DNA from: a virus
Taxonomy: Duplodnaviria > Heunggongvirae > Uroviricota > Caudoviricetes
Reading direction: 5' to 3' (one strand)
Length of the DNA: 64,000 nt
IMG/VR virus record: IMGVR_UViG_3300031134_000639
The position numbers and the translations under genes were made by a program. Positions within the stretch are counted from its first letter, which is position 1. Every line of letters starts with the position of its first letter. A model generated the notes under the pieces. That model ran no database searches. It was not told the DNA's origin and saw only the letters and a list, made by a program, of their open reading frames with translations. Positions 22,204-49,181 of this stretch are shown one piece after another.

Positions 22204-23043
22204 ATGTCAACAGCTACTGCAACCAAGTGCTCCAAACCTGCCGGTGAGCCATGCCGTCTGCATAATCCGCAGGGAACAGGCACAGTAGGCATCTCTCGTG
22301 AAAGCTTTATTAACGCGGGAGTCAGAGAGTTAGCTACTGCACGTAAAGAGCAGGTTCTGGCTGAGATGGTGCCAGCAGTTGAAGAAAGAAAAGACTTAGG
22401 CATGATGGGCCGCAGCGCTCAAGACAAACTTGTTCTAGCTGTGTTTGACGCTAGAGAAAATATGAACTTGAAAACTGACCCTAAGACAGGCAAGCAGACA
22501 GTGTCTGTTTACAGGTCAGGTGTACCGCAGGCTCCCAAGAAACGTGGTGTTGAAGGATTGTCTTACGCTAACGCTGATGAGCATGCGCCTGAAGGTCATC
22601 AGGACCGTACAACAGCTGTCTTTGCTTCCCCAACGTTATATGGCGTAACTAGATGGGTTGCTGGTAACGAAGGAATCATTGAAGACTTGAATGTTAGAGA
22701 GCTTCGTGTTGACCCTGATGAAGTTCGTGTCTACTCTGTTAACGCTTGGCAGCGGGCTTCAGCGAACTACTTTGATGGTGTTCCAGAGGAAACACATGCA
22801 AAAAACTACTGGGCGACAGGTATGACTTTGCGTGAGTATTACAAGAGGATGCACACTGACACTAAGTTTAACCCAACAGAGTGGGAGCTACTTATCAATG
22901 AGAGTCAACTTCAGGGTGTCAAAAACGTAGTGAACAAGAAAGTTGTTGAGGCAGCAGAAGCTGAGCATGAGTGGATGCCTGAGAGGGTAGCGAATGCTCT
23001 AAAGAAAGCCCGTAAGCACCTATCAAAGAAGGCTGCTGCTTAA
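22204..23043 (+). CDS. Hypothetical protein 279 aa with N-terminal Cys-x7-Cys-x2-His motif
   Basis: N-terminus KCSKPAGEPCRLHNP has the same C...C..H spacing class as the array leader; rest unknown. Confidence 0.45.
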   Translation: MSTATATKCSKPAGEPCRLHNPQGTGTVGISRESFINAGVRELATARKEQVLAEMVPAVEERKDLGMMGRSAQDKLVLAVFDARENMNLKTDPKTGKQTVSVYRSGVPQAPKKRGVEGLSYANADEHAPEGHQDRTTAVFASPTLYGVTRWVAGNEGIIEDLNVRELRVDPDEVRVYSVNAWQRASANYFDGVPEETHAKNYWATGMTLREYYKRMHTDTKFNPTEWELLINESQLQGVKNVVNKKVVEAAEAEHEWMPERVANALKKARKHLSKKAAA

Positions 23044-23084
23044 AGCTTGGTTATTTTGCTCTGTTTTAGTGTATAGTAGATACT

Positions 23085-23954
23085 ATGGACTTTGACAGAA
23101 TAGCTTTAGAGGTGAACGCTTTTGCGAACCTACCCGCTGAGCACATCTACGAAAACTTAGTCGGATCCCCTTTCCCTGAAATTACGGTAGACGGTAGACC
23201 TATGACAGGTTTACGTAAAAACGTAATTGACATTCTTGCCTTCAAATGGCTTATCAAGAACAGGCCAGATTTTAATGGCAAAGACTTTAAGGATGCTTAC
23301 CGGTCAAGTGTTGCAGAGGCTCTTCGTTCTCCTACCAACTTAGGGGAGTTCTCTTTGTACCCTTCCAGACATGACTTAAGGTACCTTTTCCCTAAGAACT
23401 TGTTTGGTGTGAGCGAGACTCCGAATGAGCTTCAAAATCTTTTGGAGGAGTATGGGGTTGAACTGTTTGATATCAACTCGTTCTACTACCTGGCAACCAT
23501 GGAAGAGTTCTTGGGAGCTAAAGTTGATTTGCCTAGAATCATTAACGACGTAACTGAGTTGTTCCGTTCTAACCCACAAATCTATTTCACGTTGGAGGAT
23601 CTTCTTGACTTGATACGTGTAGAAGCATATTCTGTTGCGAAAACAGGCTCATATGTTGAAGATAAAGTGAATCTTCTGACTGTAATCCAGTATTACCATA
23701 GGGCACGTCAAGGCTTACCTCTGCGACCATATAAGTCATCCTCAGAGGATGTACAAAAAATTTTGACAGATAGATGGTTCCAGCCAGATCATGCGGAGAA
23801 CATTTTCTACAGCTACATGCAGTCATTAGGTGAGCCTGAGAAGGTTAAAAAGGTTGTTGTCCTTTATGCTCTAGGGTTCAGCACTGAACACGAACAAAGA
23901 GAACACGACAACACACCAACCGAATGGCTAGCCAAACTTCTTGGAGACAAATAA
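23085..23954 (+). CDS. Hypothetical protein 289 aa
   Basis: ORF only. Confidence 0.45.
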   Translation: MDFDRIALEVNAFANLPAEHIYENLVGSPFPEITVDGRPMTGLRKNVIDILAFKWLIKNRPDFNGKDFKDAYRSSVAEALRSPTNLGEFSLYPSRHDLRYLFPKNLFGVSETPNELQNLLEEYGVELFDINSFYYLATMEEFLGAKVDLPRIINDVTELFRSNPQIYFTLEDLLDLIRVEAYSVAKTGSYVEDKVNLLTVIQYYHRARQGLPLRPYKSSSEDVQKILTDRWFQPDHAENIFYSYMQSLGEPEKVKKVVVLYALGFSTEHEQREHDNTPTEWLAKLLGDK

Positions 23955-25938: not shown

Positions 25939-27411
25939 ATGTGCCAACCTCAATCAGAAGGCGGACGCCGTTGCAACGGTCACACACCATACGGTGTTGC
26001 TCGTCGTAATTTGCAAGCCCAAAAGCAATACCATGAGCACCGACTCACTGACAACCAGTTAACCGAGAAGCAGCGAGCTAAAAGTGAGAAAGGCTTAGAA
26101 GAAGCCGTTAACGGTCTCAACGAACTCTCTGAAGAGAAGAAAGCTCTAGGAACAGTCAAGCCGTACGTCATGAACTTGACTCCGAACACAGAGAAAGTAC
26201 TCAACCAGCTGGAAGCAGATGGTTTCACTCCCTACATTGTGGGAGGCTCAGTGCGTGACGTTATCATGGGCTTAGACTCAAAAGATGTTGACATTGAAGT
26301 GTACGGCGGTCAGCCTGAATCCATTGCGAAGTCTCTGAGAAAAATTGGTCACGTTGACGAGGTAGGAAAATCTTTTGGTGTGTTGAAGATTGCCATAGAC
26401 GGTGAAGACTTTGACGTTTCCCTTCCGCGAACTGATTCAAAGATTGGTGACGGGCACAAAGGGTTCTCAGTTGAGGTTAACCCTGACTTGAGTTTAGATG
26501 AAGCCACAGCTCGAAGAGATTACACAATCAACGCTTTGATGTACACTCATAGGCTAGGTTTCATCGTGGATAAGCACGGCGGACTTAAAGACCTTGAGAA
26601 TGGTCAGCTGCGTCACGTCTCGGAAGCTTTTGACGAAGACCCTCTGCGTGTTCTCCGTGGTGTTCAGATGGCATCCCGTTTTGATATGGAAATGCACCCT
26701 GACACGGTTGCTCGTGCACAGAAGCTTAAGTCATCCTTCAACGACTTAGCTACAGAGCGTGTAGCTATTGAGTTTGATAAGCTACATCTCAAAGGCAAGA
26801 ATGCCAGACGTGCATTCAAAGTTCTTCAGGCTACTGGTTGGGATTCTAACTTCCCTGGGTTAGCTGAGATTAATGATGAGAAGCTTCACACTGACTTGTC
26901 CAATGCTCACCATGTTGCTGACCGTGAGAGTCTAGACAACCAGGACAAGACTGTTCTAATCACGTCTATGATTACCTCTAAGATGAATCGCAAGGATCGT
27001 GAGAAGTTCCTAAAGTCAACTGTTATTGGTGAAAAAACACAGGGCATCATTCGTATCCTCAGTGAAACTAACTTACCAGAGAAGCAGGACTCTGCAAGCA
27101 TGCGTTTCTGGGCAGATGACCTAGGTAAAGTAAGTATCCGTAACTACAGTCACATGCTTGAAGCCCAAGGCCGAAAAGATGAAGCAAAAAGCTTGCTAGC
27201 TAAAGCTGAGGCAGTTGGTATTGCTGACCGTGCAGAAGCAGGAATGATTCAAGGTAGAGATGTTATAGCTCGCCATCCTGAAGTTAAAACAGGTCCTTGG
27301 TTAGGGAAAATGCTGAAAGCTGCGTTGCATGATCAGTACAATGAGAAGTTCAGAACACAGAAGCAGGCTGACCAGTGGTTAGCAGATAACATGCCTAAGT
27401 TCTACAACTGA
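25939..27411 (+). CDS. CCA-adding tRNA nucleotidyltransferase / poly(A) polymerase-family enzyme with N-terminal Cys/Arg-rich leader, 490 aa
   Basis: GFTPYIVGGSVRDVIMG...DVDIEVYGG (Pol-beta NT motif), RRDYTINALMY, plus HD-like C-terminal half. N-terminus MCQPQSEGGRRCNGH shares the array leader. Confidence 0.8.
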   Translation: MCQPQSEGGRRCNGHTPYGVARRNLQAQKQYHEHRLTDNQLTEKQRAKSEKGLEEAVNGLNELSEEKKALGTVKPYVMNLTPNTEKVLNQLEADGFTPYIVGGSVRDVIMGLDSKDVDIEVYGGQPESIAKSLRKIGHVDEVGKSFGVLKIAIDGEDFDVSLPRTDSKIGDGHKGFSVEVNPDLSLDEATARRDYTINALMYTHRLGFIVDKHGGLKDLENGQLRHVSEAFDEDPLRVLRGVQMASRFDMEMHPDTVARAQKLKSSFNDLATERVAIEFDKLHLKGKNARRAFKVLQATGWDSNFPGLAEINDEKLHTDLSNAHHVADRESLDNQDKTVLITSMITSKMNRKDREKFLKSTVIGEKTQGIIRILSETNLPEKQDSASMRFWADDLGKVSIRNYSHMLEAQGRKDEAKSLLAKAEAVGIADRAEAGMIQGRDVIARHPEVKTGPWLGKMLKAALHDQYNEKFRTQKQADQWLADNMPKFYN

Positions 27412-27460: not shown

Positions 27461-27876
27461 TGTTGAGGGGCATCTACTGGCCGATACCAGCAGAGACATT
27501 AAAGCTAGGTCCAGACACCTGAATGTCGCTCTGAACAGTGTGATCTACAGGAGCGATTGAGAGTGTGGATGTAGCGATGAGTGTTGCAACACTGGCTTTA
27601 GTGAAGAAAGCAGCAATGATTTCCATGATTGTTTGTTGTCCTTTTCTGTGTTGTTGTTTGTGTTTGTGTGTGTACTCATATTGTACCACATAACACTGTC
27701 AAGAGGAAGAAAAACTTTTCTCAAAAACCTTGATTTTCCGGGGTTTTTGAGGGGATGGAATAAGTTTTTAGGTTTCCTACAACGTAACCTGGAAACTGTT
27801 GTTCAGACTAGTGATAACCACCAAATCTGAAACTAAATTAGAACCTAATCGTATCACATGTGAAAGTAAAAAGGAA

Positions 27877-30511: not shown

Positions 30512-30575
30512 CAATTCTGTTCATCTTGCTAAAAAACTGAGATGAAAAACATTTCTGCGCTAAGCTTAAACCAAT

Positions 30576-31157: not shown

Positions 31158-31180
31158 ACCAAGGAAAGGTAAACCTACGC

Positions 31181-33991: not shown

Positions 33992-34008
33992 AACGTTAGA
34001 CATATACC

Positions 34009-34752
34009 ATGTGTAGAAATAGACCCGGCCCACGCTGTACTGACCATTCCCTTCAGAGCATGAACCGTGCCAGTAGCAAACTTGCGCGCATAAAAGAAGA
34101 AGCAATGAAGCTCATTGAGCGTTTTAACACAGCAAAGCCTGGCTCAAAGACAGCAGAGAACCTGAAAGCTCGTATTGAAGCTAAACAGGATGAGCGCAGA
34201 CAGGCAGCACGAAAGTTTGAAGAAGAGAAGCTTGACTACCAGGCAACACCAGGTGGGCAGGAAGAGCTACGCGCAAAAATTAGTGATGAAGAAACAGACC
34301 CTGAAGAAGCTGAACGTCTGAAAGTTGATTTAGCCGCAGCTGAAGCACGTAGACAATGGCAGAATGACATGAACAAGAAAATTTGTCGTGCCATCCAAGA
34401 AGGCGGTGTCATTAGTGCTGTGCTCATGGTTGAAACAGAACGCCACCTACAGCATGAGCGTCTAGCTGAGATACAAGCTAAACTAATTGAAGCTCAGAAA
34501 GAGAAAGAGCACAACGAAAAAGAGTATAAGACTCCGTTGGGACGCCAGCCTTCAAACGCTATGAGACTGCGACGTAATATTAACCGTGCTCAAAAAACCA
34601 TATACTTCTTCCGTAAGCAGGAGCTACTTATCTCTCTGATGCGTGGAGACTTAGACAGTTACCTTAAACGCCAGATGAAGAGAAAGACTACTAACATGAG
34701 CCGAAAAGCGTTCATGGGTGGAGTCAATGTAGCTACTAAGCTCATCCGCTAA
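34009..34752 (+). CDS. Coiled-coil protein with the N-terminal Cys/Arg leader (MCRNRPGPRCTDH), 247 aa
   Basis: Leader motif plus long K/E/R-rich helical region; no ART domain. Confidence 0.5.
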   Translation: MCRNRPGPRCTDHSLQSMNRASSKLARIKEEAMKLIERFNTAKPGSKTAENLKARIEAKQDERRQAARKFEEEKLDYQATPGGQEELRAKISDEETDPEEAERLKVDLAAAEARRQWQNDMNKKICRAIQEGGVISAVLMVETERHLQHERLAEIQAKLIEAQKEKEHNEKEYKTPLGRQPSNAMRLRRNINRAQKTIYFFRKQELLISLMRGDLDSYLKRQMKRKTTNMSRKAFMGGVNVATKLIR

Positions 34753-36969: not shown

Positions 36970-37856
36970 TGTGCCGCAGCAAAGAATTAGGCGGCAGGCG
37001 CTGTCCATCTCATACAGACCCAGCAAAACAGTCAGTCTATAATGCTCGCCGCCGCGAACTATATGCACAGCGTAAGCAGGCCCACAACATATCGTTTTTG
37101 AATTACAACACCGCCAAGCCATGGCTAAACGAAGACGATGATGCATACAAAACGTTTGTAGAAGAGGCTGATGCGTTTGCACGCAAGGTGAATCCCAACA
37201 TTAATACAACTCAATGGGATGATGATGAAATGATTTATATGGAACCAGTAACTGACGAGCAGGATGCTCTTATTCAATACAGCGGCGATGGCTATGAAAA
37301 TATCAATCAGTACCTTCGTGCCGGACAACCTAAAACTGATGTAGAACAAACTTTCAAGGTCAAGTTTGACGAATATCGCTCTGCGGCAGAAAACGCCAAT
37401 TTAGTAAAAAATATTGATTCAGCGTTGCTCAAAGCAATACCATCAGAAAAACCACGAGTACTTTATCGCTCTATTCGTGTGCCTCGCGGTGTACCATCTA
37501 GCCAGGCCTCACAATGGCTTAGAGAAAACTTCTCAGTAGGATCTGTCGTCAGCAACCCTGGTTACATGTCAGTTTCTTTGAACGCAGGGCTAGCCAACAG
37601 TATCTTTGGTGAAAGTAGTACGCAACAAACGGCAATCACCATGGAAATCTTAAGTAAAAAAGGCGCTCCGCTTGGAGCAGGCATGTCCAAAACAGCTTAC
37701 AGCGAAACTGAACTTCTTTTACCGCGTGACGTTAAACTAAAAGTGGTCTCTTTAGAAGAAGACGTAGATTACACAGTGATGTTCCGAAACAAAGAGAAAA
37801 CAACCAAACGCACTGTTATACGTCTCATAGACGAAAATGATGAAGGAGAAAACTGA
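36969..37856 (+). CDS. ADP-ribosyltransferase paralog 2, 295 aa
   Basis: MCRSKELGGRRCPSHTDP...; LYRSIRVP; YMSVSL; ETELLLPRD; start overlaps upstream stop (TAATG). Confidence 0.7.
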   Translation: MCRSKELGGRRCPSHTDPAKQSVYNARRRELYAQRKQAHNISFLNYNTAKPWLNEDDDAYKTFVEEADAFARKVNPNINTTQWDDDEMIYMEPVTDEQDALIQYSGDGYENINQYLRAGQPKTDVEQTFKVKFDEYRSAAENANLVKNIDSALLKAIPSEKPRVLYRSIRVPRGVPSSQASQWLRENFSVGSVVSNPGYMSVSLNAGLANSIFGESSTQQTAITMEILSKKGAPLGAGMSKTAYSETELLLPRDVKLKVVSLEEDVDYTVMFRNKEKTTKRTVIRLIDENDEGEN

Positions 37857-38731
37857 TGTGCAGACCCAAAGAGAATGGTGGGAGACGCTGTCCTCAACAC
37901 ACTGACCCTGTAAAACACGCCGCATATAACGCACGTCGTAGAGAACTGTACGCTGCTTCCAAAAAAGCGGACTCATCTTCTGCTCTGACTAGTCTTTTCC
38001 CTGAGATGGGTGTTCCCATACAACCACTAAATGAAAACGTACGTCTTGCGTTCATTGCTGATGCTCGTAAGCTGACTAAAGCGCTCCTGCCGGATTTTGA
38101 TGAAAACACCTGGGCGCTTACAGAGAGTGTTATAACCTCAGACCATCCTAAATATGCTAACCCTGCTAGCCATGAAAGCTTGCGTTACTATACAGATATT
38201 GGCTACACTCATCTTAGAGCTAATCTAGAAGGCAGAGGTTATGCTGCTCCTGAAACACTTGAATGGGAACATCGTGTCATAGACTCTATTGACAAAGCTT
38301 TCGAACAGGCATCCCCACCTGATGAGCCTCGCCTACTATATCGTGGTATGAGAATTCCTAGTGAACATGAGCCTGACCAGTTCATTAATGAGAACTTCCC
38401 TGTTGGAGGTGTTGTCAGCCAGAAGTCTTATATGTCAACAAGTCTGCTACCTTCGGTATCTAAGTCATTCGGGGATGGATTTGGGCACGGTGAAGAGCGA
38501 ATTGCTAGGTCAGTAGTTTTCCAGATTGTTAGCAAACAGGGTATAGCTCTGGGAAAAGGAACCTCCGAAATGTCGGACAGGGAAAAGGAAGTTCTGATGC
38601 CTCGTAATGCGAGATTCAAAGTAGTTAGCGTAGATAAAGGCGTTGACTTCAGCTATACTCCGTTTGGTTACCCTAATGAGAAACTGAAGCGCACGTTAAT
38701 TCGTTTGGTTGATGCGTCAGACGAAGAATAG
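37856..38731 (+). CDS. ADP-ribosyltransferase paralog 3, 291 aa
   Basis: MCRPKENGGRRCPQHTDP...; LYRGMRIP; YMSTSL; EKEVLMPRN; TGATG overlap. Confidence 0.75.
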   Translation: MCRPKENGGRRCPQHTDPVKHAAYNARRRELYAASKKADSSSALTSLFPEMGVPIQPLNENVRLAFIADARKLTKALLPDFDENTWALTESVITSDHPKYANPASHESLRYYTDIGYTHLRANLEGRGYAAPETLEWEHRVIDSIDKAFEQASPPDEPRLLYRGMRIPSEHEPDQFINENFPVGGVVSQKSYMSTSLLPSVSKSFGDGFGHGEERIARSVVFQIVSKQGIALGKGTSEMSDREKEVLMPRNARFKVVSVDKGVDFSYTPFGYPNEKLKRTLIRLVDASDEE

Positions 38732-38807: not shown

Positions 38808-39698
38808 ATGTGTAGACCTAAAGAGTTGGGCGGCAGACGCTGTCCTCAGCATACCGACCCAGTAAAACACGAAGCTTACAACGCCCGTCGCCGCGAACTA
38901 TACGCAGAATCCAAAAAAGTAAGCTCTTCATCTAACCCACTTGACCTCTTCCCTAAAATGGGTGCTGTCATAGGAGCCTTAGACGAAAGTGTGCGTCTAA
39001 CTTTTTTATCTGATGCCCGTAAGTTGACCAAATCACTGATGCCAGATTTTGATGAAGAGCAGTGGAAGGACACAGAAGACGTTATTAGTCCAAGTAACCC
39101 AAAATATATCAACCCCACAAATCATGACGCTCTAAGATACTACACAGAACTAGGCTTCATCACTCTCAGAAATCATTTAGAGCAAAATGATGAGGCTCCT
39201 ACTGAAAATAAAGACTGGCATGACCGCGTTGTATCAGCAATAGACAGCGCTTTTGAACAAGCGGACCCACCAGAAGAACCTCGCCTGCTTTATCGTGGTA
39301 TGAGAATCAGACAAAACCATGCAGACAAGGATAGCATCAGCAAATACGTTGCTGACAACTTCCCTGTGGGAGGAGTAATCAGTCAGAAAAACTACATGTC
39401 AACAAGTTTAAGCCCTTCAGTTTCAACTTCATTTGGTGATGGTTTTGGTGGCACTCCAGAAGAGCGTGACTCCAGGTCTGTACTCTTTCAGATTGTCAGC
39501 AAGCAGGGTATTGCTTTAGGTAAAGGAACCTCTGACATGGGCGACAGAGAGAAAGAAGTCCTGATGCCGCGCAACGCTCGTTTTAAAGTTGTTAGTGTAG
39601 ATGAAGGAGCAGATTTCAACTACAATATTTACGGTGACACACCTGTTGAGCTTAAGCGTACTATAATTCGTTTGGTTGATGTGTCGGACGAAGACTGA
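38808..39698 (+). CDS. ADP-ribosyltransferase paralog 4, ~296 aa
   Basis: Start chosen at MCRPKELGGRRCPQHTDP to match paralogs (the ORF track begins 6 codons earlier). LYRGMRIR; YMSTSL; EKEVLMPRN; close paralog of gene 3. Confidence 0.75.
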   Translation: MCRPKELGGRRCPQHTDPVKHEAYNARRRELYAESKKVSSSSNPLDLFPKMGAVIGALDESVRLTFLSDARKLTKSLMPDFDEEQWKDTEDVISPSNPKYINPTNHDALRYYTELGFITLRNHLEQNDEAPTENKDWHDRVVSAIDSAFEQADPPEEPRLLYRGMRIRQNHADKDSISKYVADNFPVGGVISQKNYMSTSLSPSVSTSFGDGFGGTPEERDSRSVLFQIVSKQGIALGKGTSDMGDREKEVLMPRNARFKVVSVDEGADFNYNIYGDTPVELKRTIIRLVDVSDED

Positions 39699-39750: not shown

Positions 39751-39779
39751 AATTGGAGTAAACATCTTTTGGAGATAGC

Positions 39780-40634
39780 ATGTGCCGTAGCAAGGAGTTG
39801 GGTGGGCGTCGTTGCCCTCAATACACCGACCCTGCAAAGCGTGCCGCATATAATGCTCGTCGTAGAGAACTATACGCTAACCGGAAAAAAGGTCAGCAAG
39901 TAGACTATATCCCTCTAGACCAGCCTAGACACAAGTTCCATGAAAGCGACTCACCTGAGTGGCAGCGTTATAAGAAGGAAGCTAAAGCCTTCAAAGAAAA
40001 ACTTTCTGCTTTAGAGGGCTGGAAGACCTATAAGAAGAGGTTGCACGATTACACAGACTTTGAGTACATCAACATACGTATCTTCCTAAATGGCTATGAC
40101 GCCACCGACATTAAAGCTAGCCCTATGTCATATGACCAAAAAGAGCAGAAAACGATTGCTAAGAGCATCAAGGTTTTAGATGAGGTTCTAACTCTTGCTG
40201 ATAAACCAGATGAGCCTAGACTTCTCTACCGTGCGATGATGGTTCCTTTTAGCATCAAAGACAAGCAGATGGAAGGTTGGATGAGAGAGAACTTCCCAGT
40301 CGGTGGTGTTGTAAGTCAACTGTCTTATATGTCCACCTCTCATGACCCACACAGGCTAATCAATAACTTCGGTGGAGTACGTAACCAGCATAGAGCTATC
40401 ATGTTTGAGATAATTAGCAAACAAGGAGCCGTATTAGGCAACGGAACATCCGAGTATGGTTCTTTAGAATCAGAAGTGCTTATGCCTAGGGAGGCTAAGT
40501 TCAAAATAGTTTCAGTTGATGAAAACGTAGACTATCAAGTATTTGCTCAAGACGAGAACAACGGTGAAGGATCCATGAGTAGTGTCAAAAGAACAGTCAT
40601 CCGCCTAATGGACGTAGACGGGGAGGATAGCTAA
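39780..40634 (+). CDS. ADP-ribosyltransferase paralog 5, 284 aa
   Basis: MCRSKELGGRRCPQYTDP; LYRAMMVP; YMSTSH; ESEVLMPRE. Confidence 0.7.
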   Translation: MCRSKELGGRRCPQYTDPAKRAAYNARRRELYANRKKGQQVDYIPLDQPRHKFHESDSPEWQRYKKEAKAFKEKLSALEGWKTYKKRLHDYTDFEYINIRIFLNGYDATDIKASPMSYDQKEQKTIAKSIKVLDEVLTLADKPDEPRLLYRAMMVPFSIKDKQMEGWMRENFPVGGVVSQLSYMSTSHDPHRLINNFGGVRNQHRAIMFEIISKQGAVLGNGTSEYGSLESEVLMPREAKFKIVSVDENVDYQVFAQDENNGEGSMSSVKRTVIRLMDVDGEDS

Positions 40635-41584
40635 TGTGTCGTACTAAAGAATTGGGTGGGCGTCGTTGCCCTCAGCACACTGACCCTGTGAAACATGCTG
40701 CGTACAATGCACGTCGTAGAGAGCTATATGCAGCTCAAAAAAGCATTATCAAAAATGATGACCAAGCTTCTTTAGAGTCTCGTTTCCTTGGGCCTGACCA
40801 GAGAAGAAAACCGGCTGGTGAGCAAGAACATCTTAGCTTTGTAAAAGATACAGAAACGTACCGCGATAGTTTGGCAGAGTACGAGAAGACCACCTACTCC
40901 AACGACTATGCTGAGTGGAGAGCCAGCCCAAAGAAAACTGACCAGTGGGGTGGCTCACCTCGTGCTGCCCTCAGACACTATACGGAGATGGGCTACAGTG
41001 ATGTACGCAACTACCTGAACGGTTTCAGCATGGAAGTGTACCGTGACGAAGACGAAGCGCAGAAAGCTGGTGTGGAAGTGAAACCGCAGGACAACGCTGA
41101 CATGGCAGGCTTTGTTCGCATGATGGACAAAGTAATTTCTCTTGCCCCCAAACCTGCGGAACCACGCATGCTGTACCGTGGAATTGACCCACCTTCTACC
41201 GCTATGGGTAAAGAGGCTGAATGGCTTAAAGAGAAGTTCCCCATTGGAGGAATAGTAAGCCAGAAATCCTACATGTCTACAAGCTTAGAACCCTCTATAG
41301 CTGCTGGAAGCTTTAGCCTCACAGAGAACTCTGTTGTTATGGAAATTCTTTCTAAAGAAGGTGCAGCCCTTGGTGTAGGCCAGTCAACATGGGGTCTTCA
41401 GGAAAGTGAGGTCGTCTTACCACGCGATGCCAAACTTAAAGTTGTCGCAGTGTACCAGGACGTAAAATACGGTTACACTAAAGTCACAAGAGAAATGGAC
41501 GGCGAAGTTCTAGCAGAAAAAGATGCTGAAGACAAAAGAACAATCATCCAGGTAATCCATGTTACAGATGAGGATGAAAGCTAA
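40634..41584 (+). CDS. ADP-ribosyltransferase paralog 6, 316 aa
   Basis: MCRTKELGGRRCPQHTDP; LYRGIDPP; YMSTSL; ESEVVLPRD; TAATG overlap. Confidence 0.75.
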   Translation: MCRTKELGGRRCPQHTDPVKHAAYNARRRELYAAQKSIIKNDDQASLESRFLGPDQRRKPAGEQEHLSFVKDTETYRDSLAEYEKTTYSNDYAEWRASPKKTDQWGGSPRAALRHYTEMGYSDVRNYLNGFSMEVYRDEDEAQKAGVEVKPQDNADMAGFVRMMDKVISLAPKPAEPRMLYRGIDPPSTAMGKEAEWLKEKFPIGGIVSQKSYMSTSLEPSIAAGSFSLTENSVVMEILSKEGAALGVGQSTWGLQESEVVLPRDAKLKVVAVYQDVKYGYTKVTREMDGEVLAEKDAEDKRTIIQVIHVTDEDES

Positions 41585-42450
41585 TGTGCCGCCCTAAAGA
41601 ATTGGGCGGGCGTCGTTGCCCTCGACACACTGACCCTGTAAAGCATGCTGCATATAACGCCCGCCGCAGAGAGCTATATGCAGCATCCAAAAATACAAGT
41701 TCTCTGCCTAGCCCGGTTGAGCTTTCTTCTGCCACACAGTATGAACATTTGTTTGTACTTGAGGATAAAAACACGGTTGAAACAATTGAAAAAACGTTCA
41801 AAGGAAGACTTGGATACATAGCGGAAGGTAACGCTCTATATGATGCTCTACAGGAGCAGGATGACTCTGAGAAACTAAGAAAATCTTTGCTTTACTACAC
41901 ATCTCACGGTTATACAGACTTGCGTAAATACTTGAATGCTTCCTCTGAAGACAAAGAAGACTTTGACGATGAAGCTATGGACGACTTAGTTAATGATTTA
42001 GACAAATCAATCAGCTTAGCTGAGACCAAAAGAGAATATAGAGCAGTCTATCGTGGAATCAGAGTCGACGAAACAGTAACTGGCGAGAAAAGCTTTGACG
42101 TGTGGCTGCATGAGGCATTCCCTATTGACGGTGTAGTATCGCAGAAAAGCTATATGTCAACAAGTTTGTCTCCTGCTAAAGCAATAAACATATTCGGCTT
42201 TGGTTCTGTCACAGAGTCACTACTTTTTGAGATAGTCACAAAAAGAGGGGCCGCTTTAAATGAGAAGACCTCTGTTATGGGTACAAAAGAGTATGAGATT
42301 TTGCTACCAAGGGAAGCTAAATTTAGGGTCGTGAATGTTCAAAAAGATATTACTCTAAAACTGCATTCTTCTCCTGGCGATAACGCTTTAGTTCACCCAA
42401 TTCAAAAGACTGTTGTCCAGCTAATTGATGTAACTGATGAGGAAAGCTGA
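41584..42450 (+). CDS. ADP-ribosyltransferase paralog 7, 288 aa
   Basis: MCRPKELGGRRCPRHTDP; VYRGIRVD; YMSTSL; EYEILLPRE. Confidence 0.75.
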   Translation: MCRPKELGGRRCPRHTDPVKHAAYNARRRELYAASKNTSSLPSPVELSSATQYEHLFVLEDKNTVETIEKTFKGRLGYIAEGNALYDALQEQDDSEKLRKSLLYYTSHGYTDLRKYLNASSEDKEDFDDEAMDDLVNDLDKSISLAETKREYRAVYRGIRVDETVTGEKSFDVWLHEAFPIDGVVSQKSYMSTSLSPAKAINIFGFGSVTESLLFEIVTKRGAALNEKTSVMGTKEYEILLPREAKFRVVNVQKDITLKLHSSPGDNALVHPIQKTVVQLIDVTDEES

Positions 42451-43283
42451 TGTGTCGCACTAAAGAACTTGGTGGGCGTCGTTGCCCGTCACACAGCAAC
42501 CCTCAGCTTGTCGCTGCTCGTAATGCCCAGAGACGACAGAAGTATGCAGCCAGTAAGAAATCAGCTGTTGCGCCTGCCCAACAGTATTCGTTTCAAGTGG
42601 ACGAAGACGAACTAGTTACTTCTGTAGACATGTCAGGAGATGTGTGGGACTCATACATCTCTGATGGCGAAAAGTTTCTTACCAAAATCCAGGAGAGTGA
42701 ACAAAAAGTTGAGATGATAGATGCTCTGCTTGAATACACTCACAAAGGCTACCGCCCTCTTAGGGATCATCTAAATAGGTCTGAAGAAGAGCAGGCAGGT
42801 AACGAGTACATGGTTGGGTTAACAAAAAACTTGGATGACGCTTTACATTTAGCTGAGCCACCAAGTGAGCCAAGGACGTTGTTCAGGGGGATGGAAATAC
42901 CAACAGATGAGGTGACTGATGATGAAATAGATGGCTGGTTGGACTCGCATTTTCCTGTAGACGGAGTCTTCTCCCAGAAGAGCTTCATGTCAACAACCTT
43001 GTCAATGTACAAAGCCGCTTACGTTTTTGGTAACGCTCGGGGTCCTAAAAGATCAGTCATCTTTGAGATCATTAGTAAGCAAGGTGCACCACTTGGAACA
43101 GGAACATCCGATTTAGATACAAAAGAGTTAGAGATTCTGATGCCACGTGAAGCCCGCTTCAAAGTGGTTGGCATAAAGAAGAACATTACTTTTGACCTTG
43201 CTGCTTCCTCTCACCCTGATGCATTTCCTGATGAAATAACTAGAACTATCATCCAAATTGTCGACGCTGAAGAAAAGAGCTAA
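42450..43283 (+). CDS. ADP-ribosyltransferase paralog 8, 277 aa
   Basis: MCRTKELGGRRCPSHSNP; LFRGMEIP; FMSTTL; ELEILMPRE. Confidence 0.7.
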   Translation: MCRTKELGGRRCPSHSNPQLVAARNAQRRQKYAASKKSAVAPAQQYSFQVDEDELVTSVDMSGDVWDSYISDGEKFLTKIQESEQKVEMIDALLEYTHKGYRPLRDHLNRSEEEQAGNEYMVGLTKNLDDALHLAEPPSEPRTLFRGMEIPTDEVTDDEIDGWLDSHFPVDGVFSQKSFMSTTLSMYKAAYVFGNARGPKRSVIFEIISKQGAPLGTGTSDLDTKELEILMPREARFKVVGIKKNITFDLAASSHPDAFPDEITRTIIQIVDAEEKS

Positions 43284-43285
43284 CC

Positions 43286-44203
43286 ATGTGTAGAACCGGT
43301 GGAAGACGATGCCCATCCCACAGCGACCCCACAATGGTTGCAGCACGTAATGCCCGCAGGCGAGAGCAGTACTCAAACAGAAATCAAGGGTACAGCACCA
43401 TGGTCGATGAAGAGAACCCTGTAGCTGGTATGTTGAACCATGCCAGTATGGGTTTGTACGGCAAAAAGTCAGCTGGTTTTACACCTTTAGATGAAGGATA
43501 CGAACCCTTTGATGAGTACAGTGAAGACTGGGAAGAATACAAGGAAGACGCTAAACTGTTCCTTAGGACACTACGAGGAGAGTACGGCAAAAAGTTTTAT
43601 GACCTGCAAACGTCTTTGTACAGTTACACTGCCGGTGACTACAACGACGTGCGTGACTACTTAAATGGCTACAGAATAAGAGCCACCTCTAAAGAAGAGA
43701 TGGAAAAACCTTTTGAGAAGAGAACCATAAAGATGGTTAAACGTATCATCTCTGACTTAGACGGTGCTCTCAAGCTAACTACCCCACCAGCATCACCTCG
43801 CAAAGTCTATCGTGGAATGCAGGTGCCTGTACGAGTTCCAGCTGAAGACGCTGCCACCTGGGTTGCAGAGAATTTCACTCCAGGGAAAGTTGTCTCCCAG
43901 AAGTCCTACATGTCAACAACTTTGAACCCTGCTAAAGCAAACTTCTTCTCAGGAACAAAAAATGGAGTCATTTTTGAAATCCTAACTAAAGAAGGCGCTG
44001 TTTTAGGTCAGGGAACATCACAGTACAACGAGATGGAAACAGAAGTCCTGATGCCTCGTGAAGCTAAATTCAAAGTAGTCAGTGTAACAGTTGATGCAGA
44101 AGTCAAACTGAAGCCATCTAAAGGCTATAACAGTCTAAATGGAGTGCAAACAACTAAGAAAACAATCATCCGTATGGTGGATGCAGGAGAGGAAAACAAC
44201 TGA
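43286..44203 (+). CDS. ADP-ribosyltransferase paralog 9 (short-leader subtype MCRTGGRRCPSH), 305 aa
   Basis: VYRGMQVP; YMSTTL; ETEVLMPRE. Confidence 0.75.
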   Translation: MCRTGGRRCPSHSDPTMVAARNARRREQYSNRNQGYSTMVDEENPVAGMLNHASMGLYGKKSAGFTPLDEGYEPFDEYSEDWEEYKEDAKLFLRTLRGEYGKKFYDLQTSLYSYTAGDYNDVRDYLNGYRIRATSKEEMEKPFEKRTIKMVKRIISDLDGALKLTTPPASPRKVYRGMQVPVRVPAEDAATWVAENFTPGKVVSQKSYMSTTLNPAKANFFSGTKNGVIFEILTKEGAVLGQGTSQYNEMETEVLMPREAKFKVVSVTVDAEVKLKPSKGYNSLNGVQTTKKTIIRMVDAGEENN

Positions 44204-45135
44204 TGTGTAGAACAGGTGGAAGACGGTGCCCGTCACACAGCAACCCGGAGGCTGTAAGTGCCCGTAACGCCCGTCGTAGGGCTGCCTACGGCTCCAAGAA
44301 AGCTTCAAGCTCCACGGAGACGCCAACTGGCTCTGAGGGCGTTAGAATCGCTTCTGAGCTTCTGAAGAAGAACGCTTGGATGTTTGATGACTACTCACAG
44401 GTAAAGTATCGCTTCGATGACAGCCACGATAACTGGAGTCAATACCTTGAAGATGCAGATGAGTTCTATGAGATCTTGAAATCTAAGGCACCTGAAGGCG
44501 AATCCTCACCACACATTAGAGTGCTCAAAAACTACTACACTGGTGAAGGCTACCGTGGTATTCGTGATTACTTAAACGATTATGACGTTGCGAACGGCAA
44601 GCCGCGAGAGTTTGACCCTAAGTATGAGGAAGAAGACCGAGCAGCTGAGAAAGAAGAGATGGATGAGATTATACCGCTTCTAGATGAAGCAATTAGTCTA
44701 GCTCCAAAAAGTGAGTTCCGTCGTCAACTGTACCGTGGCATGAATTTGCCTTCAAACATAAAAAGTGAAGATGTTAGCAGTTGGATTCATGAGAACTTCC
44801 CTGTTGGTGGTGTTGTAAGTCAGAAATCGTACATGTCAACATCATTGAGTGCTGACAGGGCTGTGCTTAACTTCACTAACCGCTGGCCGCGTATGCATGA
44901 CCGGACAGTTGTCTTTGAGATCATCTCCAACGAAGGTGCAGTCTTGGGAGATGAAACTGCTTTACATGGTTCAAAGGAAGCAGAGGTGCTTATGCCTCGC
45001 AACAAGAAGTTCAGGGTCCTGTCAATTGATGAGAACGTGACATACACAACATCTGGCTTTTCTGAAGGTTTCTCCGATGCTCCAGAGGACACAAGCCCAA
45101 CACAAAAAACTGTTATCCGAATGATTGATGCTTAA
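44203..45135 (+). CDS. ADP-ribosyltransferase paralog 10 (short-leader subtype), 310 aa
   Basis: MCRTGGRRCPSHSNP; LYRGMNLP; YMSTSL; EAEVLMPRN; TGATG overlap. Confidence 0.75.
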   Translation: MCRTGGRRCPSHSNPEAVSARNARRRAAYGSKKASSSTETPTGSEGVRIASELLKKNAWMFDDYSQVKYRFDDSHDNWSQYLEDADEFYEILKSKAPEGESSPHIRVLKNYYTGEGYRGIRDYLNDYDVANGKPREFDPKYEEEDRAAEKEEMDEIIPLLDEAISLAPKSEFRRQLYRGMNLPSNIKSEDVSSWIHENFPVGGVVSQKSYMSTSLSADRAVLNFTNRWPRMHDRTVVFEIISNEGAVLGDETALHGSKEAEVLMPRNKKFRVLSIDENVTYTTSGFSEGFSDAPEDTSPTQKTVIRMIDA

Positions 45136-45151
45136 TTTGGATGGGCAGTAG

Positions 45152-45164
45152 CCCCGATAGTAAT
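45152..45164 (+). promoter_or_regulatory. CCCCGATAGTAAT motif, 31 nt upstream of ART paralog 11
   Basis: Recurring motif. Confidence 0.5.
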
Positions 45165-45190
45165 AACTGGAATTAGACTTTGGAGTTAAC

Positions 45191-46054
45191 ATGTGCCGTA
45201 CTGCTGGAAGACGCTGCCCGTCTTATACCGACCCTAAGCTTATAGCAGAACGCAATGCTCGTCGCAGGGCCGCATACAAAGTATCGCACAAAACCAAAGC
45301 TGAACCTAAAAGGCTTGACCCGACAACGTTGTTTAAACCTTTTGACGTTTACCGTGAAGAAATAATTCCGGAAACACCCGAATACAGAGAGTACATTCAA
45401 GCCGGAAAGGACTTCTCAAACAGCATCACTCCGCAGGAGTCAGACGCTGTATACGGCTATACTGACATGGACTACAGCATAATCCGAGACTACCTTAATG
45501 GGTACGAAATGGAGTCATCAACAGTCGTGCCTTTAACTCTTCAGGAATCACGTCAACAGGAAGTTGACAACACTATCGAAACAATAGACTCAGCCTTGAA
45601 GAAAGCCGATCCACCAGCGTCTCCTAGGACTCTTTACAGAGGCATGATGATACCCATGAAAGTAAAACCAGCAGACATGAAAGCATGGGTTGAAGATAAT
45701 TTCCCTATTGGCGGTGTGATAAGCCAAAAAAGTTATATGTCAACAAGTTTAAGCACGCAGAAAGCACTTGGCTTCGCTGGTTCATATGATGCTTCCCCTA
45801 GAAGTGTTCTACTAGAAATTGTTTCTTCTTCCGGCGCTGTACTCAACAGCCAGACTTCTTCATACGGCGAGATGGAGAGAGAGGTCTTGCTTCCCAGAGG
45901 TAAACGATTCCAGGTTGTGTCAGTAACCACTGATGCAGAGATTAACTATAAGATGTATGCGCACAAAAAGCACTACGAACGAACAACAACTGGAATAAAA
46001 ATTATTCAGCTGATTGATTTGGATGAACTAGAGGGAGATTCTGCTGAAGCATAA
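45191..46054 (+). CDS. ADP-ribosyltransferase paralog 11 (short-leader subtype), 287 aa
   Basis: MCRTAGRRCPSYTDP; LYRGMMIP; YMSTSL; EREVLLPRG. Confidence 0.75.
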   Translation: MCRTAGRRCPSYTDPKLIAERNARRRAAYKVSHKTKAEPKRLDPTTLFKPFDVYREEIIPETPEYREYIQAGKDFSNSITPQESDAVYGYTDMDYSIIRDYLNGYEMESSTVVPLTLQESRQQEVDNTIETIDSALKKADPPASPRTLYRGMMIPMKVKPADMKAWVEDNFPIGGVISQKSYMSTSLSTQKALGFAGSYDASPRSVLLEIVSSSGAVLNSQTSSYGEMEREVLLPRGKRFQVVSVTTDAEINYKMYAHKKHYERTTTGIKIIQLIDLDELEGDSAEA

Positions 46055-46498: not shown

Positions 46499-46505
46499 GC
46501 TTAGT

Positions 46506-46895: not shown

Positions 46896-48311
46896 GTGTA
46901 CAAGAACTTACATGAAGGACAAAAGTTGGCTAAGAGAGCGTTTCGTTGCAGTAACTGTAATAACATCACCACAAAGTGGATGGGTATCTGCGATGAGTGT
47001 GGAGCATCCGGAACAATCGATGAGGACGCATCAGCACTAGTTACACTCAACGCTCCCAAGCCTGGTGTGGCATCAGCTGCAACCCCAGGAATTCGCGCCG
47101 CACGGGCAGCTAGCGGTAAAGCTCCTCAGCGCGTCGGAGATGTGAAAGCAGACTCCTTCAAACGTTTCAGCACAGGGTTGAAAGAGTTTGACCGTGTGCT
47201 CGGTGGAGGTCTAGTACCAGGAGGTGTTCTGCTTCTAGCAGGTGTGCCAGGTGTTGGTAAGTCAAGTATCCTTCTGTCAACAGCGAAAGCTTTAGCTGAC
47301 CAAGGCAAAAAAGTACTTATCGTCTCTGGTGAGGAAACCGAAGCTCAGATTGCTTCTCGTGCCCACAGAACAAATGCTTTATCTGAAAACCTGTATCTTC
47401 TCTCCGAGTCAAGCCTGCCAAACGCAGTTGCCCACATTTACGACATGCAACCTGATATTGTTATTGTTGACTCCATCCAGACTATGGTTTCAGAAAACAG
47501 TGAAGGACGCCATGGTAGCCCAACGCAGATGAACGAAGTGGCAAGCGAACTAACTAACCTTGCTAAGAGCATGAGCATCCCAATGCTCCTCATCGGACAC
47601 GTTACCAAAGACGGTGCCATCGCTGGTCCGAGGACAGTTGAGCACCTTGTGGACGTTGTACTCTACTTTGAGGGCACAAGCGACTCTCCTCTACGTCTTC
47701 TTCGTGGAGTTAAAAACCGTTACGGTGCGGTAGATGAAATTGGGTGTTTTGAGCACACAGAAGATGGGCTTATTGAAGTCTCTGACCCCTCAGGCTTCTT
47801 CCTCAACGAACACGATGACAACGTAGCTGGTTACGCTACTTCAATCCTTGTTGAAGGTAACCGTGCGCTCCCCATTGAAATTCAGGCTTTGGTAACAACA
47901 ACTAACCTTCCGAACCCAAGAAAAATCAGCAACGGTCTAGATCATGGGCGTGTGATGATGGTGCAGGCTATTCTTGAGAAGCACGGGCACCTACGCCTAC
48001 AGGATAAAGATGTTTATGTGTCAACCTCAGGTGGTTTGCTCACTAAGGACTCCTCCATTGACCTTGCTATTGCAGCTGCCATCATCTCCTCACACGACAG
48101 CATCGCAACTCCCGACCATTCAGTATTCCTAGGTGAGACCTCTCTTACAGGTGAGATTCGCCAGCCGAGGTCCTACAACAAGCGAGTAAACGAAGCTAAG
48201 CGACTAGGGTTCAACAATATTTTTGCTCCTTCCAAAGAAGATGCTGACAGCGTAAAAAACATTGTGGCTCTGGTCAAAGCTTTGCGTCCAAGTGTTCGTG
48301 ACCGCCGCTGA
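46896..48311 (+). CDS. radA: DNA repair protein RadA/Sms
   Basis: N-terminal C4 zinc finger CSNCNNITTKWMGICDECG, Walker A GVPGVGKSSILL, KNRYG motif VKNRYGAVDEIGCFE, C-terminal Lon-like domain. Confidence 0.9.
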   Translation: MYKNLHEGQKLAKRAFRCSNCNNITTKWMGICDECGASGTIDEDASALVTLNAPKPGVASAATPGIRAARAASGKAPQRVGDVKADSFKRFSTGLKEFDRVLGGGLVPGGVLLLAGVPGVGKSSILLSTAKALADQGKKVLIVSGEETEAQIASRAHRTNALSENLYLLSESSLPNAVAHIYDMQPDIVIVDSIQTMVSENSEGRHGSPTQMNEVASELTNLAKSMSIPMLLIGHVTKDGAIAGPRTVEHLVDVVLYFEGTSDSPLRLLRGVKNRYGAVDEIGCFEHTEDGLIEVSDPSGFFLNEHDDNVAGYATSILVEGNRALPIEIQALVTTTNLPNPRKISNGLDHGRVMMVQAILEKHGHLRLQDKDVYVSTSGGLLTKDSSIDLAIAAAIISSHDSIATPDHSVFLGETSLTGEIRQPRSYNKRVNEAKRLGFNNIFAPSKEDADSVKNIVALVKALRPSVRDRR

Positions 48312-48323
48312 TAGACATATTCT

Positions 48324-49181
48324 ATGTGTAGAACCGGTGGTAGACGTTGTCCAGCTTACAGTGACCCTCAGGCTATAGCCGACCGTAATGCAAGACGCAG
48401 AAAAGCTTATGCTGCTAAGAAAAGTGTTGTTCAGCCTCCACTGGAGATGGCCTTTCCTAGCCTAAGTGAAGTACGTAAAGTTGTTGGTTCTGAAGACCGC
48501 GAGTTGCGTGGTAAGAAGCTTGAAGAAGAACTTACTAGCTCTGAAGTAGAAGCAGTCGGGTACTACACAGAATCAGGTTACATAACTGTGCGAAATGAGT
48601 TAGTGGACTGGGAGTTAATCCAGGATTTGCAAGATAATGAAGACGTAGAAGAGCCTGATGAGGACATAAACGTTATCATAGACCATCTAGATAATGTGAT
48701 AGCTAAAGCCATCCCACCCCAAAATCCTGTGCCATTATATCGTGGAATTAATGTACCTATCTCAGTGCATTTAGACGAAGTTGATAATTGGGTTGATGCG
48801 AAATTCCCTATTGGTGGAATAATTCAGCAGGATAACTTCATGTCAACTTCATCAGCGCCGCAAACTGCGGTAGGCTTCAGTCAGCCAATAGATTCTATGT
48901 TTGGCAACTACGAAGATGAAAACGAAATGCGAGACATAATGTCTCAAGAACGCAGCATTGTTATGGAAATTTTAAGTAAAAAAGGTGCTGTTATCCTACC
49001 TTCTTTAGCTGGTGGAAGTTACGATGAGCAGGAAACCTTGCTGCCAAGAAATGCACGACTCAAAATTGTTGGTGTGCACAAGAAACAATCTTATTCATAT
49101 ATGACAAGATTCAGGCCCATCGACCCAGAAATAGCCATGGTTGTAAACCGTACTGTAATACAGGTAGTTGACGCAGACTAG
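48324..49181 (+). CDS. ADP-ribosyltransferase paralog 12 (short-leader subtype), 285 aa
   Basis: MCRTGGRRCPAYSDP; LYRGINVP; FMSTSS; EQETLLPRN; RTVIQVVDAD. Confidence 0.7.
   Translation: MCRTGGRRCPAYSDPQAIADRNARRRKAYAAKKSVVQPPLEMAFPSLSEVRKVVGSEDRELRGKKLEEELTSSEVEAVGYYTESGYITVRNELVDWELIQDLQDNEDVEEPDEDINVIIDHLDNVIAKAIPPQNPVPLYRGINVPISVHLDEVDNWVDAKFPIGGIIQQDNFMSTSSAPQTAVGFSQPIDSMFGNYEDENEMRDIMSQERSIVMEILSKKGAVILPSLAGGSYDEQETLLPRNARLKIVGVHKKQSYSYMTRFRPIDPEIAMVVNRTVIQVVDAD

Follow-up and report, generated by a model that had tools for sequence, protein, structure and literature searches.

Effector enzymes of phages and conjugative elements are carried by MuF-fused and polyvalent proteins (Iyer et al., 2017, PMC5512222; Jamet et al., 2017, PMC5576092), and MuF-VIP2 fusions have been described in Microbacterium phages (PMC7302621). 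The packaged Alt protein of phage T4 is a virion-borne ADP-ribosyltransferase (ART) (PMC9503650, PMC9026906). Here we describe a peptide of ~30-36 residues, hereafter the tag, which stands at the extreme N-terminus of 14 proteins of three otherwise unrelated kinds in the IMG/VR record IMGVR_UViG_3300031134_000639; the stretch analysed (the window) is 64 kb long and is part of a replicon of ~885 kb. These proteins are 12 ARTs, a CCA-adding tRNA nucleotidyltransferase (the CCA enzyme) and a coiled-coil protein. The capsid-targeting sequence of T4, for comparison, spans ~10-19 residues that the prohead protease cuts off; it is not basic and lacks a Cys pair.

A peptide kept by selection

All 12 array-type ART open reading frames (ORFs) carry the tag, 11 of them in tandem (36004-46054) and one apart (48324-49181). 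Eight have a long form, M-C-R-x4-G-G-R-R-C-P-x-[HY]-[TS]-[DN]-P-x6-N-A-[RQ]-R-R-x2-Y, and four a short form beginning M-C-R-x-[GA]-G-R-R-C-P. An earlier, sequence-only reading of this DNA had placed the leader on all 12, as is the case, with a spacer of x(3-6) that is really x4 or x1. It had also seen the same leader on the CCA enzyme (25939, MCQPQSEGGRRCNGH...RNLQAQKQY) and on the coiled-coil protein (34009, MCRNRPGPRCTDH), and both are as it described them. The back-translated pattern ATGTGYMRN-N(3-15)-GGNMGNMGNTGY, which stands for M-C-x-(1-5 aa)-G-R-R-C, has 13 matches in the window against 0.01 expected by chance, as estimated from 100 dinucleotide-preserving shuffles of the window.

In-frame stops lie 2-16 codons upstream of the ATGs of the ART and coiled-coil genes and 30 codons upstream of the CCA-enzyme ATG. 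Genes inside the array have either a GGAG/GAGG Shine-Dalgarno sequence at -9 to -13 or a start that overlaps the preceding stop by one base, and the gaps from ART to ART are -1, 2 or 55-81 nt, with no ORF between. Because of these upstream stops, the Shine-Dalgarno sequences or overlap coupling, and the fact that the tag is the best-conserved region of its ART proteins, we judge the starts to be real. The stops and the coupling also rule out the proviso of the sequence-only reading that the starts might be mis-called and the real ones lie downstream. For the ORF listed from GTG 38790, ATG 38808 is almost certainly the true start.

Among the 12 window ARTs, mean pairwise identity is 69% over the first 36 alignment columns and 33% in the remainder, and conservation of the tag is on a par with that of the invariant catalytic R, S-T-S and E-x-E motifs. 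Where two paralogs share an amino acid, they use different codons for it in 59% of cases within the tag and in 60% within the body. Since synonymous sites are equally diverged in tag and body, gene conversion and a conserved element at the DNA or RNA level were rejected. Purifying selection on the peptide keeps the tag in each carrier. An artefact of mis-called starts or of DNA-level conservation is scarcely credible: nothing was found in its favour beyond the one ORF listed from an upstream GTG (38790), and the upstream stops, the Shine-Dalgarno or overlap coupling, the equal synonymous divergence and the retention of the tag across >250 protein clusters all speak against it.

In ART-type tags, the invariant or nearly invariant residues are M1, C2, G9, R10/R11, C12, the helix cap [DN]17-P18, N25, R28/R29 and Y32; N25, R28/R29 and Y32 are spaced i, i+3/4 and i+7 and thus lie on one helical face. 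Across ART- and CCA-type tags, only the Met-Cys N-terminus and the second Cys are invariant, the first Cys being exactly residue 2 in ~96% of members. The two Cys are separated by 5-11 residues in ART-type tags and by 8-13 in those of CCA type, and a third Cys is absent from 247 of 257 tags. Pro follows the second Cys in 140 of the 148 ART-type tags, whereas CCA-type tags have N, S, D or T there and never Pro. Of the 148 ART-type tags, 112 (76%) have His at +3 from the second Cys, and the others have Y, S, Q, E or L; of the 109 CCA-type tags, 55 have a His no more than six residues from that Cys. Over 36 residues, the tag carries a mean net charge of +6 to +7.

Structures were predicted with AlphaFold2 (AF2) from family alignments. 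For the ART at 40634, the predicted local distance difference test score (pLDDT) is 89.4 overall; residues 1-17 form a loop (pLDDT 61-71), and a helix at 18-48 leads into a confident C3-like fold, for which Foldseek finds Vis, C3, C2-I and SpvB at E about 1e-10. For the CCA enzyme, residues 1-16 have pLDDT 52-75, and a helical hairpin (17-36 and 43-70, pLDDT 96-98) precedes the head domain. In these models, the Cys loop appears not to be self-structured, and the basic helix would belong to a folded N-terminal extension beside the catalytic domain.

Several described motifs were compared with the tag and set aside. A Cys2-His or CCHC zinc knuckle has three to four ligands at fixed spacing, whereas only two Cys are invariant here, at a spacing of 5-13. 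Tat, Sec and lipoprotein signals were rejected, as the first 45 residues of every member have no hydrophobic stretch and GGRRC is followed by P-x-H-T-D-P and a charged helix. A heme-regulatory Cys-Pro motif was rejected on account of the N, S, D or T that follows the second Cys in CCA-type tags.

Carriers in the window and beyond

A tag-only profile searched exhaustively against 1.84 billion representative proteins found 173 clusters at E<=1e-3, of which 67 reached E<=1e-10, and the match covers residues 1-36 in nearly all of the 173. A few cluster members have N-terminal extensions before the tag, which look like mis-called starts. Apart from one ortholog of 97% identity (P0001), full-length ART homologs have bodies only 33-40% identical, with the tag virtually unchanged. 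They stand in arrays of 11-13 genes, the contigs being 163 to 885 kb long. The homologs of the CCA enzyme range from 100% down to 37% identity, and 109 of the 120 best carry the tag, in the form MC-x(8-13)-C followed by RNLQA[QK]KQY. The fusion of tag and CCA enzyme is therefore old and widespread and no local accident. A few CCA orthologs (P0223, P0229, P0233, P0270) have other, non-homologous Cys N-termini in place of the tag, e.g., MARFHINPKTGNPGQCRAQQACPFGGAEDHY. These replacement N-termini resemble those of the window ORFs 22204 and 18778, which suggests a "type B" N-terminal module, functionally equivalent but not homologous to the tag. Type B has no Pfam family, and P0270 gave no tblastn match in the phage collection.

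Strict DNA-pattern scans found the tag at ten metagenome loci and in two bacterial genomes, Gordonia otitidis and Arthrobacter castelli, with 0 matches in IMG/VR. With the consensus tag, tblastn against plasmids returned actinobacterial replicons only, apart from one match in Halomonas that is probably due to chance; against phages, it returned a single chance match. The 559-kb linear plasmid of Streptomyces sp. NBC_00637 has three tandem ARTs starting MCRSQTKGGRRCASSHP and adjoining ligA, and plasmids of Paenarthrobacter, Rhodococcus and Dietzia encode a single tagged protein each. The hosts of the tag are uncultivated replicons of 0.2-1.0 Mb and plasmids of Streptomyces, Arthrobacter, Rhodococcus, Dietzia and Gordonia. 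On plasmid pB of Rhodococcus pyridinivorans (NZ_CP113800.1, L022 8001-9041), the RefSeq start of WP_064257667.1 is 31 codons downstream of the tag ATG; this start call hides the tag in the Rhodococcus homolog and is an annotation error that the tag exposes.

In the phage collection, megablast with the array and tblastn with one ART found no relatives, and the homologs of the CCA enzyme are distant (28-41% identity with the tag excluded) and have no tag. Besides the CCA enzyme, only the DUF2637 protein of the window has homologs in that collection, and these are distant ones from actinophages. A word-indexed protein search with the tag alone gave no match, and the exhaustive hidden Markov model (HMM) search was needed. 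Pfam, NCBIfam, PHROGs and PDB sequences hold no tag-like entry, a PDB sequence-profile search yielding one chance match at E=2.2. The tag is uncatalogued as a sequence family. What had been proposed from the window, a portable and undescribed N-terminal module on functionally unrelated cargo, thus holds well beyond it.

The range of cargo was established by clustering the cargo parts and by Pfam and PHROG scans. C3/Vis-like ARTs account for ~140 of the 161 sequences collected. Further cargoes are ART-PolyVal (PF18760), Zeta-toxin or AAA_33 kinases (PF06414), the CCA enzyme, coiled-coil proteins and a YqaJ recombinase exonuclease (PF09588; L025 12084-13097), and an Amidoligase_2 protein has a tag-like start (L027 16338). 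The P-loop kinase cargo also matches AAA_33, as does a phosphatase-linked protein (PF25109 HAD_PNKP) in a related locus. Unannotated cargo comprises one family of eight clusters and several singletons.

Another cargo family is found on plasmids (L005, L014, L015, L020, L022, L023, P0129, P0152). Its C-terminal domain is homologous to the C-terminus of MuF-like minor capsid or capsid maturation protease proteins of Arthrobacter, Streptomyces and Microbacterium phages. The gene for gp85 of phage Ottawa comes right behind the portal gene, and its product has a MuF domain (residues 159-266) as well as, at its C-terminus, the plasmid-family domain; the latter also ends the 3113-aa protein gp71 of phage Atuin. 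MuF itself (PF04233) was found in none of the tagged proteins scanned. Taken together, PF03496, PF18760, PF06414 and the MuF C-terminal-like domain correspond to the effector repertoire of MuF and polyvalent proteins, and all cargo classes that could be identified are ones fused to such proteins in phages. On the plasmids, a small gene of the RMF/CrpP family (PF04957) always follows the tagged MuF-C-like gene, often overlapping it (L020 9785-9997, L023 9028-9279, L017 1404-1673, L014 about 2157-2400 on the minus strand). The tagged gene and its RMF/CrpP neighbour lie near mihF, dnaG and an FtsK/SpoIIIE gene, a neighbourhood that looks like a conserved plasmid module.

Within the window, the CCA enzyme (25939..27411, plus strand, 490 aa; PF01743/PF12627, NCBIfam PRK13299) has MCQPQSEGGRRCNGHTPYGVARRNLQAQKQY as its tag (aa 1-31, nt 25939-26031). 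It scores 79.8 bits against PF01743 and 179 bits against PRK13299, which is under the equivalog cut-off of 290; CCA-adding, A-adding and poly(A) activity of the predicted enzyme are not distinguishable from these profile scores. The coiled-coil protein (34009..34752, plus strand, 247 aa) has a divergent tag (nt 34009-34107) that scores 13.6 bits against the tag-family HMM and is tied to the family through an ortholog starting MCRTAGRRCSDHP (L025 19088). Another ortholog starts MCRNRPGVRCSDH (L010 2847). No match to the coiled-coil protein was found in Pfam, PHROG or NCBIfam. An untagged ADP-ribosylglycohydrolase (ARH; 34766..35902, plus strand; PF03747, E=3.7e-43) lies immediately upstream of the ART array and is a candidate antidote or regulator. 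The coiled-coil gene always has the ARH gene after it; the L025 copy is likewise directly upstream of an ARH gene, so that the pair is kept even where no ART array follows.

All 12 tagged ART genes lie on the plus strand. Those with the long tag are ART 1 (36004..36969, 321 aa, tag nt 36004-36099), ART 2 (36969..37856, 295 aa, tag nt 36969-37064), ART 3 (37856..38731, 291 aa, tag nt 37856-37951), ART 4 (38808..39698, 296 aa counted from ATG 38808, tag nt 38808-38903), ART 5 (39780..40634, 284 aa, tag nt 39780-39875, Tyr replacing His), ART 6, which is the one modelled (40634..41584, 316 aa, tag nt 40634-40729), ART 7 (41584..42450, 288 aa, tag nt 41584-41679) and ART 8 (42450..43283, 277 aa, tag nt 42450-42545). 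The short tag is borne by ART 9 (43286..44203, 305 aa, MCRTGGRRCP, tag nt 43286-43372), ART 10 (44203..45135, 310 aa, tag nt 44203-44289), ART 11 (45191..46054, 287 aa, MCRTAGRRCPSY, tag nt 45191-45277) and, with RadA between it and the array, ART 12 (48324..49181, 285 aa, tag nt 48324-48410). ARTs 1, 2, 9 and 12 match PF03496, and ART 9 also PF01129. All five window ARTs scanned, namely four of the 12 tagged ones and a divergent ART at 18778, matched PF03496 at 41.8-57 bits against a gathering cut-off of 23.4, and the ART-body profile E-values for PF03496 are 1e-11 to 1e-15. R182, S215 (in S-T-S) and E257/E259 (in E-x-E) are invariant in 37 aligned ARTs, including all 12 tagged ones of the window, and these 12 ORFs align over their full length with ART homologs.

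In L025 (19901-21461), the ARH gene is followed directly by radA, while in the window 11 ART genes stand between the two (34766-35902 and 46896-48311). The window array is therefore a lineage-specific insertion or expansion at the ARH/radA junction. LigA, RadA and NERD are nucleic-acid enzymes of the window that have no tag.

Two more proteins had been listed by the sequence-only reading as bearing related forms of the leader. One is a 279-aa protein (22204..23043, plus strand) with the Cys N-terminus K-C-x7-C-R-L-H-N-P (CSKPAGEPCRLH), for which the tag HMM, Pfam, NCBIfam and PHROG gave no match. The other is the divergent ART (18778..19686, minus strand, 302 aa; PF03496, E=9.7e-11), whose N-terminus ...GSTCYTGPTCKKH includes CYTGPTCKKH and is not matched by the tag HMM. 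The pattern C-x(5-7)-C-x2-H fits both, the tag HMM scores neither, and on their sequences we treat the two as look-alikes and not as members.

A promoter-like motif, GTTAGACATATACC (G[TA]TAG-N3-T), abuts the ATG of the coiled-coil gene (33995..34008, plus strand), with further copies at 22190-22203, 35990-36003 and 48310-48323 on the plus strand and at 19687-19700 on the minus strand. It lies 5-6 nt from the ATG without a Shine-Dalgarno sequence, an arrangement like that of leaderless mRNAs. The motif occurs at exactly five gene starts (22204, 34009, 36004, 48324 and 18778), all of them tag or tag-like genes heading transcription units, and its one further match in the window is internal (43140). 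This suggests that the five units form one regulon or temporal class.

The replicon and its neighbouring genes

The sequence-only reading took the DNA to be that of a phage, a premise that is not established: 62 window proteins yielded no structural gene, and the tag occurs on actinobacterial plasmids, ordinary and giant, as well. The PHROG scan of these 62 proteins gave no head, portal, terminase or tail family, the matches to "tail" being to an NlpC/P60 domain. Contigs with proteins identical or related to those of the window (P0014, P0162, P0183, P0165) are repeatedly ~880-885 kb long, and relatives reach 1.0 Mb, which is more than the 841 kb stated in a 2025 preprint for the largest huge-phage genome at that time. 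The related replicons, of 0.2-1.0 Mb, consist mostly of ORFans, and most neighbour genes have no Pfam match and many are tiny. Beside some CCA homologs are phage- or plasmid-like genes (cREC, Imm_superinfect, DUF5131, YqaJ, a PARP-WGR protein, tiny ORFans), and DnaG and a tRNA synthetase are further neighbours in related replicons. More distant CCA homologs adjoin cellular-looking genes (ClpC-like ATPase, alpha-amylase, MFS transporter). The DUF2637 protein of the window has relatives only in phages and plasmids of Actinomycetota. We therefore regard the DNA as part of a very large, Actinomycetota-associated replicon, either a megaphage or a giant plasmid or, less probably, a tiny cell.

The DUF2637 membrane protein adjoins a secreted NlpC/P60 hydrolase (27799-29817 and 30170-32863), as on actinobacterial conjugative plasmids, and after this pair come ORFs resembling prepilin peptidase and NfeD as well as a flotillin (SPFH) gene. 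An FtsK-like ATPase is encoded at 56776-57492. In L001 and L002, pilin-like N_methyl proteins flank the ART arrays. L025 encodes a 437-aa protein with WGR and PARP catalytic domains (5268-6581), a eukaryote-like NAD+-using enzyme. The window also has arrays of ORFan paralogs of ~200-300 aa without PHROG match (1539-6565 and 11092-13157 on the minus strand, 57991-60667 on the plus strand); one ORFan family of at least 9 copies has "P-T-x-YG-x-LR" near the N-terminus, and a three-copy family lies at 57991-60667. Adjacent paralogs at 51716-52636 and 52753-53640 (both minus strand) have a different common N-terminus, MPNPYHDSQGRFASRDELKG, possibly another case of an N-terminal motif shared within this replicon; the paralog scanned (51716-52636) had no Pfam or PHROG match.

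Possible roles and comparison with known systems

We tentatively prefer to see the tag as a basic tether for nucleic acid or some other polyanion, a reading that is possible but short of probable. The tag consists of a free Met-Cys N-terminus, a Gly/Arg-rich loop ending in the second Cys, a [ST]-[DN]-P cap and a strongly basic helix (N-x2-R-R-x2-Y, or R-N-L-Q-A-x-K-Q-Y on CCA enzymes), and this module has been shuffled onto unrelated enzymes of Actinomycetota-associated mobile replicons. Its basic helix, which the Cys pair might organise by way of a metal or a partner, would attach to a polyanionic partner, most plausibly nucleic acid, be it tRNA or other RNA, or the DNA of the element or the host. 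Such a tether could keep the attached enzyme on nucleic-acid or nucleoprotein substrates, and if the nucleic acid bound were the element's own DNA, the tagged proteins could travel along with it. In its favour, the only cargoes with known substrates act on nucleic acid, the CCA enzyme on tRNA 3' ends and YqaJ on DNA, and neither is a typical injected effector. The clustered basic residues on the helix (from residue 17/18), the net charge and the conserved N/R/Y face also fit, as do the AAA_33 matches of the P-loop kinases and, in both AF2 models, a confident basic helix behind a Cys loop of low confidence. Since the tag is found on capsid-less plasmids and giant replicons alike, nucleic-acid binding would explain both without two transport machines. 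Other findings weigh against the tether. The Pfam, NCBIfam and PDB-sequence searches gave no similarity to any known nucleic-acid-binding domain, and generic polyanion binding neither explains the near-identity of the tag (~30/32 residues) across bodies of 33% identity nor accounts for a Cys at exactly residue 2 in ~96% of members. Most of the cargo, moreover, consists of classic protein-targeting or toxin effectors (C3-like ARTs, ART-PolyVal, Zeta toxin, the MuF-C-like domain), and the LigA, RadA and NERD enzymes of the window go untagged.

A second reading is a delivery signal, in which the tag would be read by a transport or assembly machine (capsid interior, portal, or a coupling ATPase of the FtsK/SpoIIIE type) and effectors would enter the new cell with the DNA of the element. 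We consider such a role doubtful, though almost as likely as the tether. By analogy with the T4 capsid-targeting sequence and with MuF and polyvalent carriers, the untagged ARH would stay behind and protect the producer. The combination of a constant N-terminus and C-termini that diverge fast is a hallmark of trafficked polymorphic effectors, the tag is confined to the N-terminus, and polyvalent proteins have ARTs, ART-PolyVal and Zeta toxin as their effector classes (PMC5512222, PMC9503650). The plasmid cargo domain, moreover, is the C-terminal domain of actinophage MuF-like or capsid-maturation-protease proteins and of Atuin gp71, MuF-VIP2 ART fusions are known in actinophages (PMC7302621), and tag and MuF are mutually exclusive among the tagged proteins scanned. 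The absence of the tag from ARH agrees with this role as well. FtsK/SpoIIIE genes lie 0.4-6 kb from a tagged gene in L015, L020 and L023, although such genes are common on actinobacterial plasmids, so their proximity weighs little. Against delivery, the window showed no gene for a capsid, portal or terminase protein, and plasmids, among them a Streptomyces linear plasmid, bear the tag too. A YqaJ exonuclease and a near-universal CCA-enzyme fusion, moreover, make odd cargo for injection, and in the AF2 models the tag helix is predicted within a folded extension and not as a free peptide. The virion-packaging or ejection signal of the sequence-only reading stays viable, in that the cargo classes match those of MuF and polyvalent fusions, and is strained by YqaJ, the near-universal CCA fusion and the plasmids. 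It is unlikely that the tag is a dedicated export or packaging address read by a single machine of the ~0.9-Mb replicons, which would send a pre-made cocktail of a dozen diversified ARTs, an enzyme for tRNA 3'-end repair, kinases and a nuclease along with the DNA.

That diverged paralogs keep the tag nearly identical points to one specific partner, and the tag might accordingly dock its carriers on one conserved protein of the host or element, or might itself be a regulatory site, either of which we hold to be quite unlikely. As a regulatory site, the arginines of G-R-R-C could be ADP-ribosylated by the ARTs and cleared by the adjacent ARH, or the Cys pair could act as a redox or metal switch or the tag as a degron limiting the lifetime of the effectors. 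The retention of the pair of coiled-coil tag gene and ARH without a following ART array, the two invariant Cys without a full set of metal ligands, which fit an intermolecular or redox site, and the promoter-like motif common to five tag or tag-like units, which suggests a regulon, would all agree with this; no candidate partner was found, however, and the plasmid versions have neither ART nor ARH neighbours. The other suggestion of the sequence-only reading was a small zinc knuckle or basic nucleic-acid-binding module. Its basic half remains slightly favoured; the Cys2-His knuckle is weakened by the want of a conserved third ligand. A classical knuckle is very improbable: C-x(6-9)-C-P-x-H is present in most ART-type tags, and the loop is poorly ordered on its own in AF2, as expected of a metal-dependent motif, but the His is replaced in 24% of ART-type tags and absent within six residues in 50% of CCA-type tags. 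The Cys-Cys spacing of 5-13, the missing fourth ligand, the 247 of 257 tags without a further Cys and the lack of any zinc-finger profile match also argue against it.

What makes the tag of note is its small size, its breadth (at least 173 clusters through an ART-based profile and >100 CCA-type clusters) and the fact that some of its hosts are cultivable. It marks effector genes, probably co-regulated, of uncultivated, very large replicons with links to Actinobacteria and of plasmids whose host genera have been cultivated. If the tag were a delivery or packaging address, it would provide a 35-residue handle for loading proteins into particles or recipients, and thus a new, minimal and transplantable signal for Actinomycetota. 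If it were a nucleic-acid tether, arrays of C3-like ARTs would be suggested to act on targets bound to nucleic acid.

Short, N-capped helices with clustered Arg/Lys are known from the arginine-rich motifs (ARMs) of lambda N and HIV Rev and from the basic region of bZIP proteins, which the tag resembles in these respects, in the Asn and Tyr on one face and in the long helix or coiled coil that comes next. No sequence or profile similarity was detected, however, the Cys loop and strict Met-Cys of the tag are without counterpart there, and binding by the tag is only putative. With the R-S-E ARTs of the C3, Vis, C2-I and SpvB type, only the cargo is comparable, in profile, in fold and in the invariant R, S-T-S and E-x-E; the solved relatives matched have no such N-terminus. 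The T4 capsid-targeting sequence is likewise a short N-terminal peptide common to unrelated proteins, and Alt is a precedent for a virion-borne ART. Unlike it, the tag has no known protease site or cleavage, is accompanied by no capsid genes seen in the window and is also found on plasmids.

In polymorphic toxins, too, the N-terminus is conserved and the C-terminus diversified (69% and 33% identity in the present ARTs), genes stand in tandem arrays, domains are of toxin classes, and the ARH could be an antidote. Here, in contrast, no immunity gene follows each toxin (a single ARH lies upstream of the array), no known secretion-linked N-terminal domain is present, and part of the cargo is not of a toxin class. 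MuF and polyvalent proteins share with the tagged proteins the cargo itself (R-S-E ART, ART-PolyVal, Zeta toxin, the actinophage MuF C-terminal domain), the plan of a conserved N-terminal carrier with a variable C-terminal enzyme, and occurrence in both phages and plasmids. The tagged proteins differ in having neither MuF nor another known carrier, in a carrier part of only ~35 residues and in one cargo in place of 2-15 domains; the tag is also found on a CCA-adding enzyme and a YqaJ exonuclease, and delivery by it is only putative. Although it comes with neither MuF or another known carrier domain nor an immunity gene per toxin, the tag works most like the carrier part of a MuF or polyvalent protein or the N-terminal domain of a polymorphic toxin.

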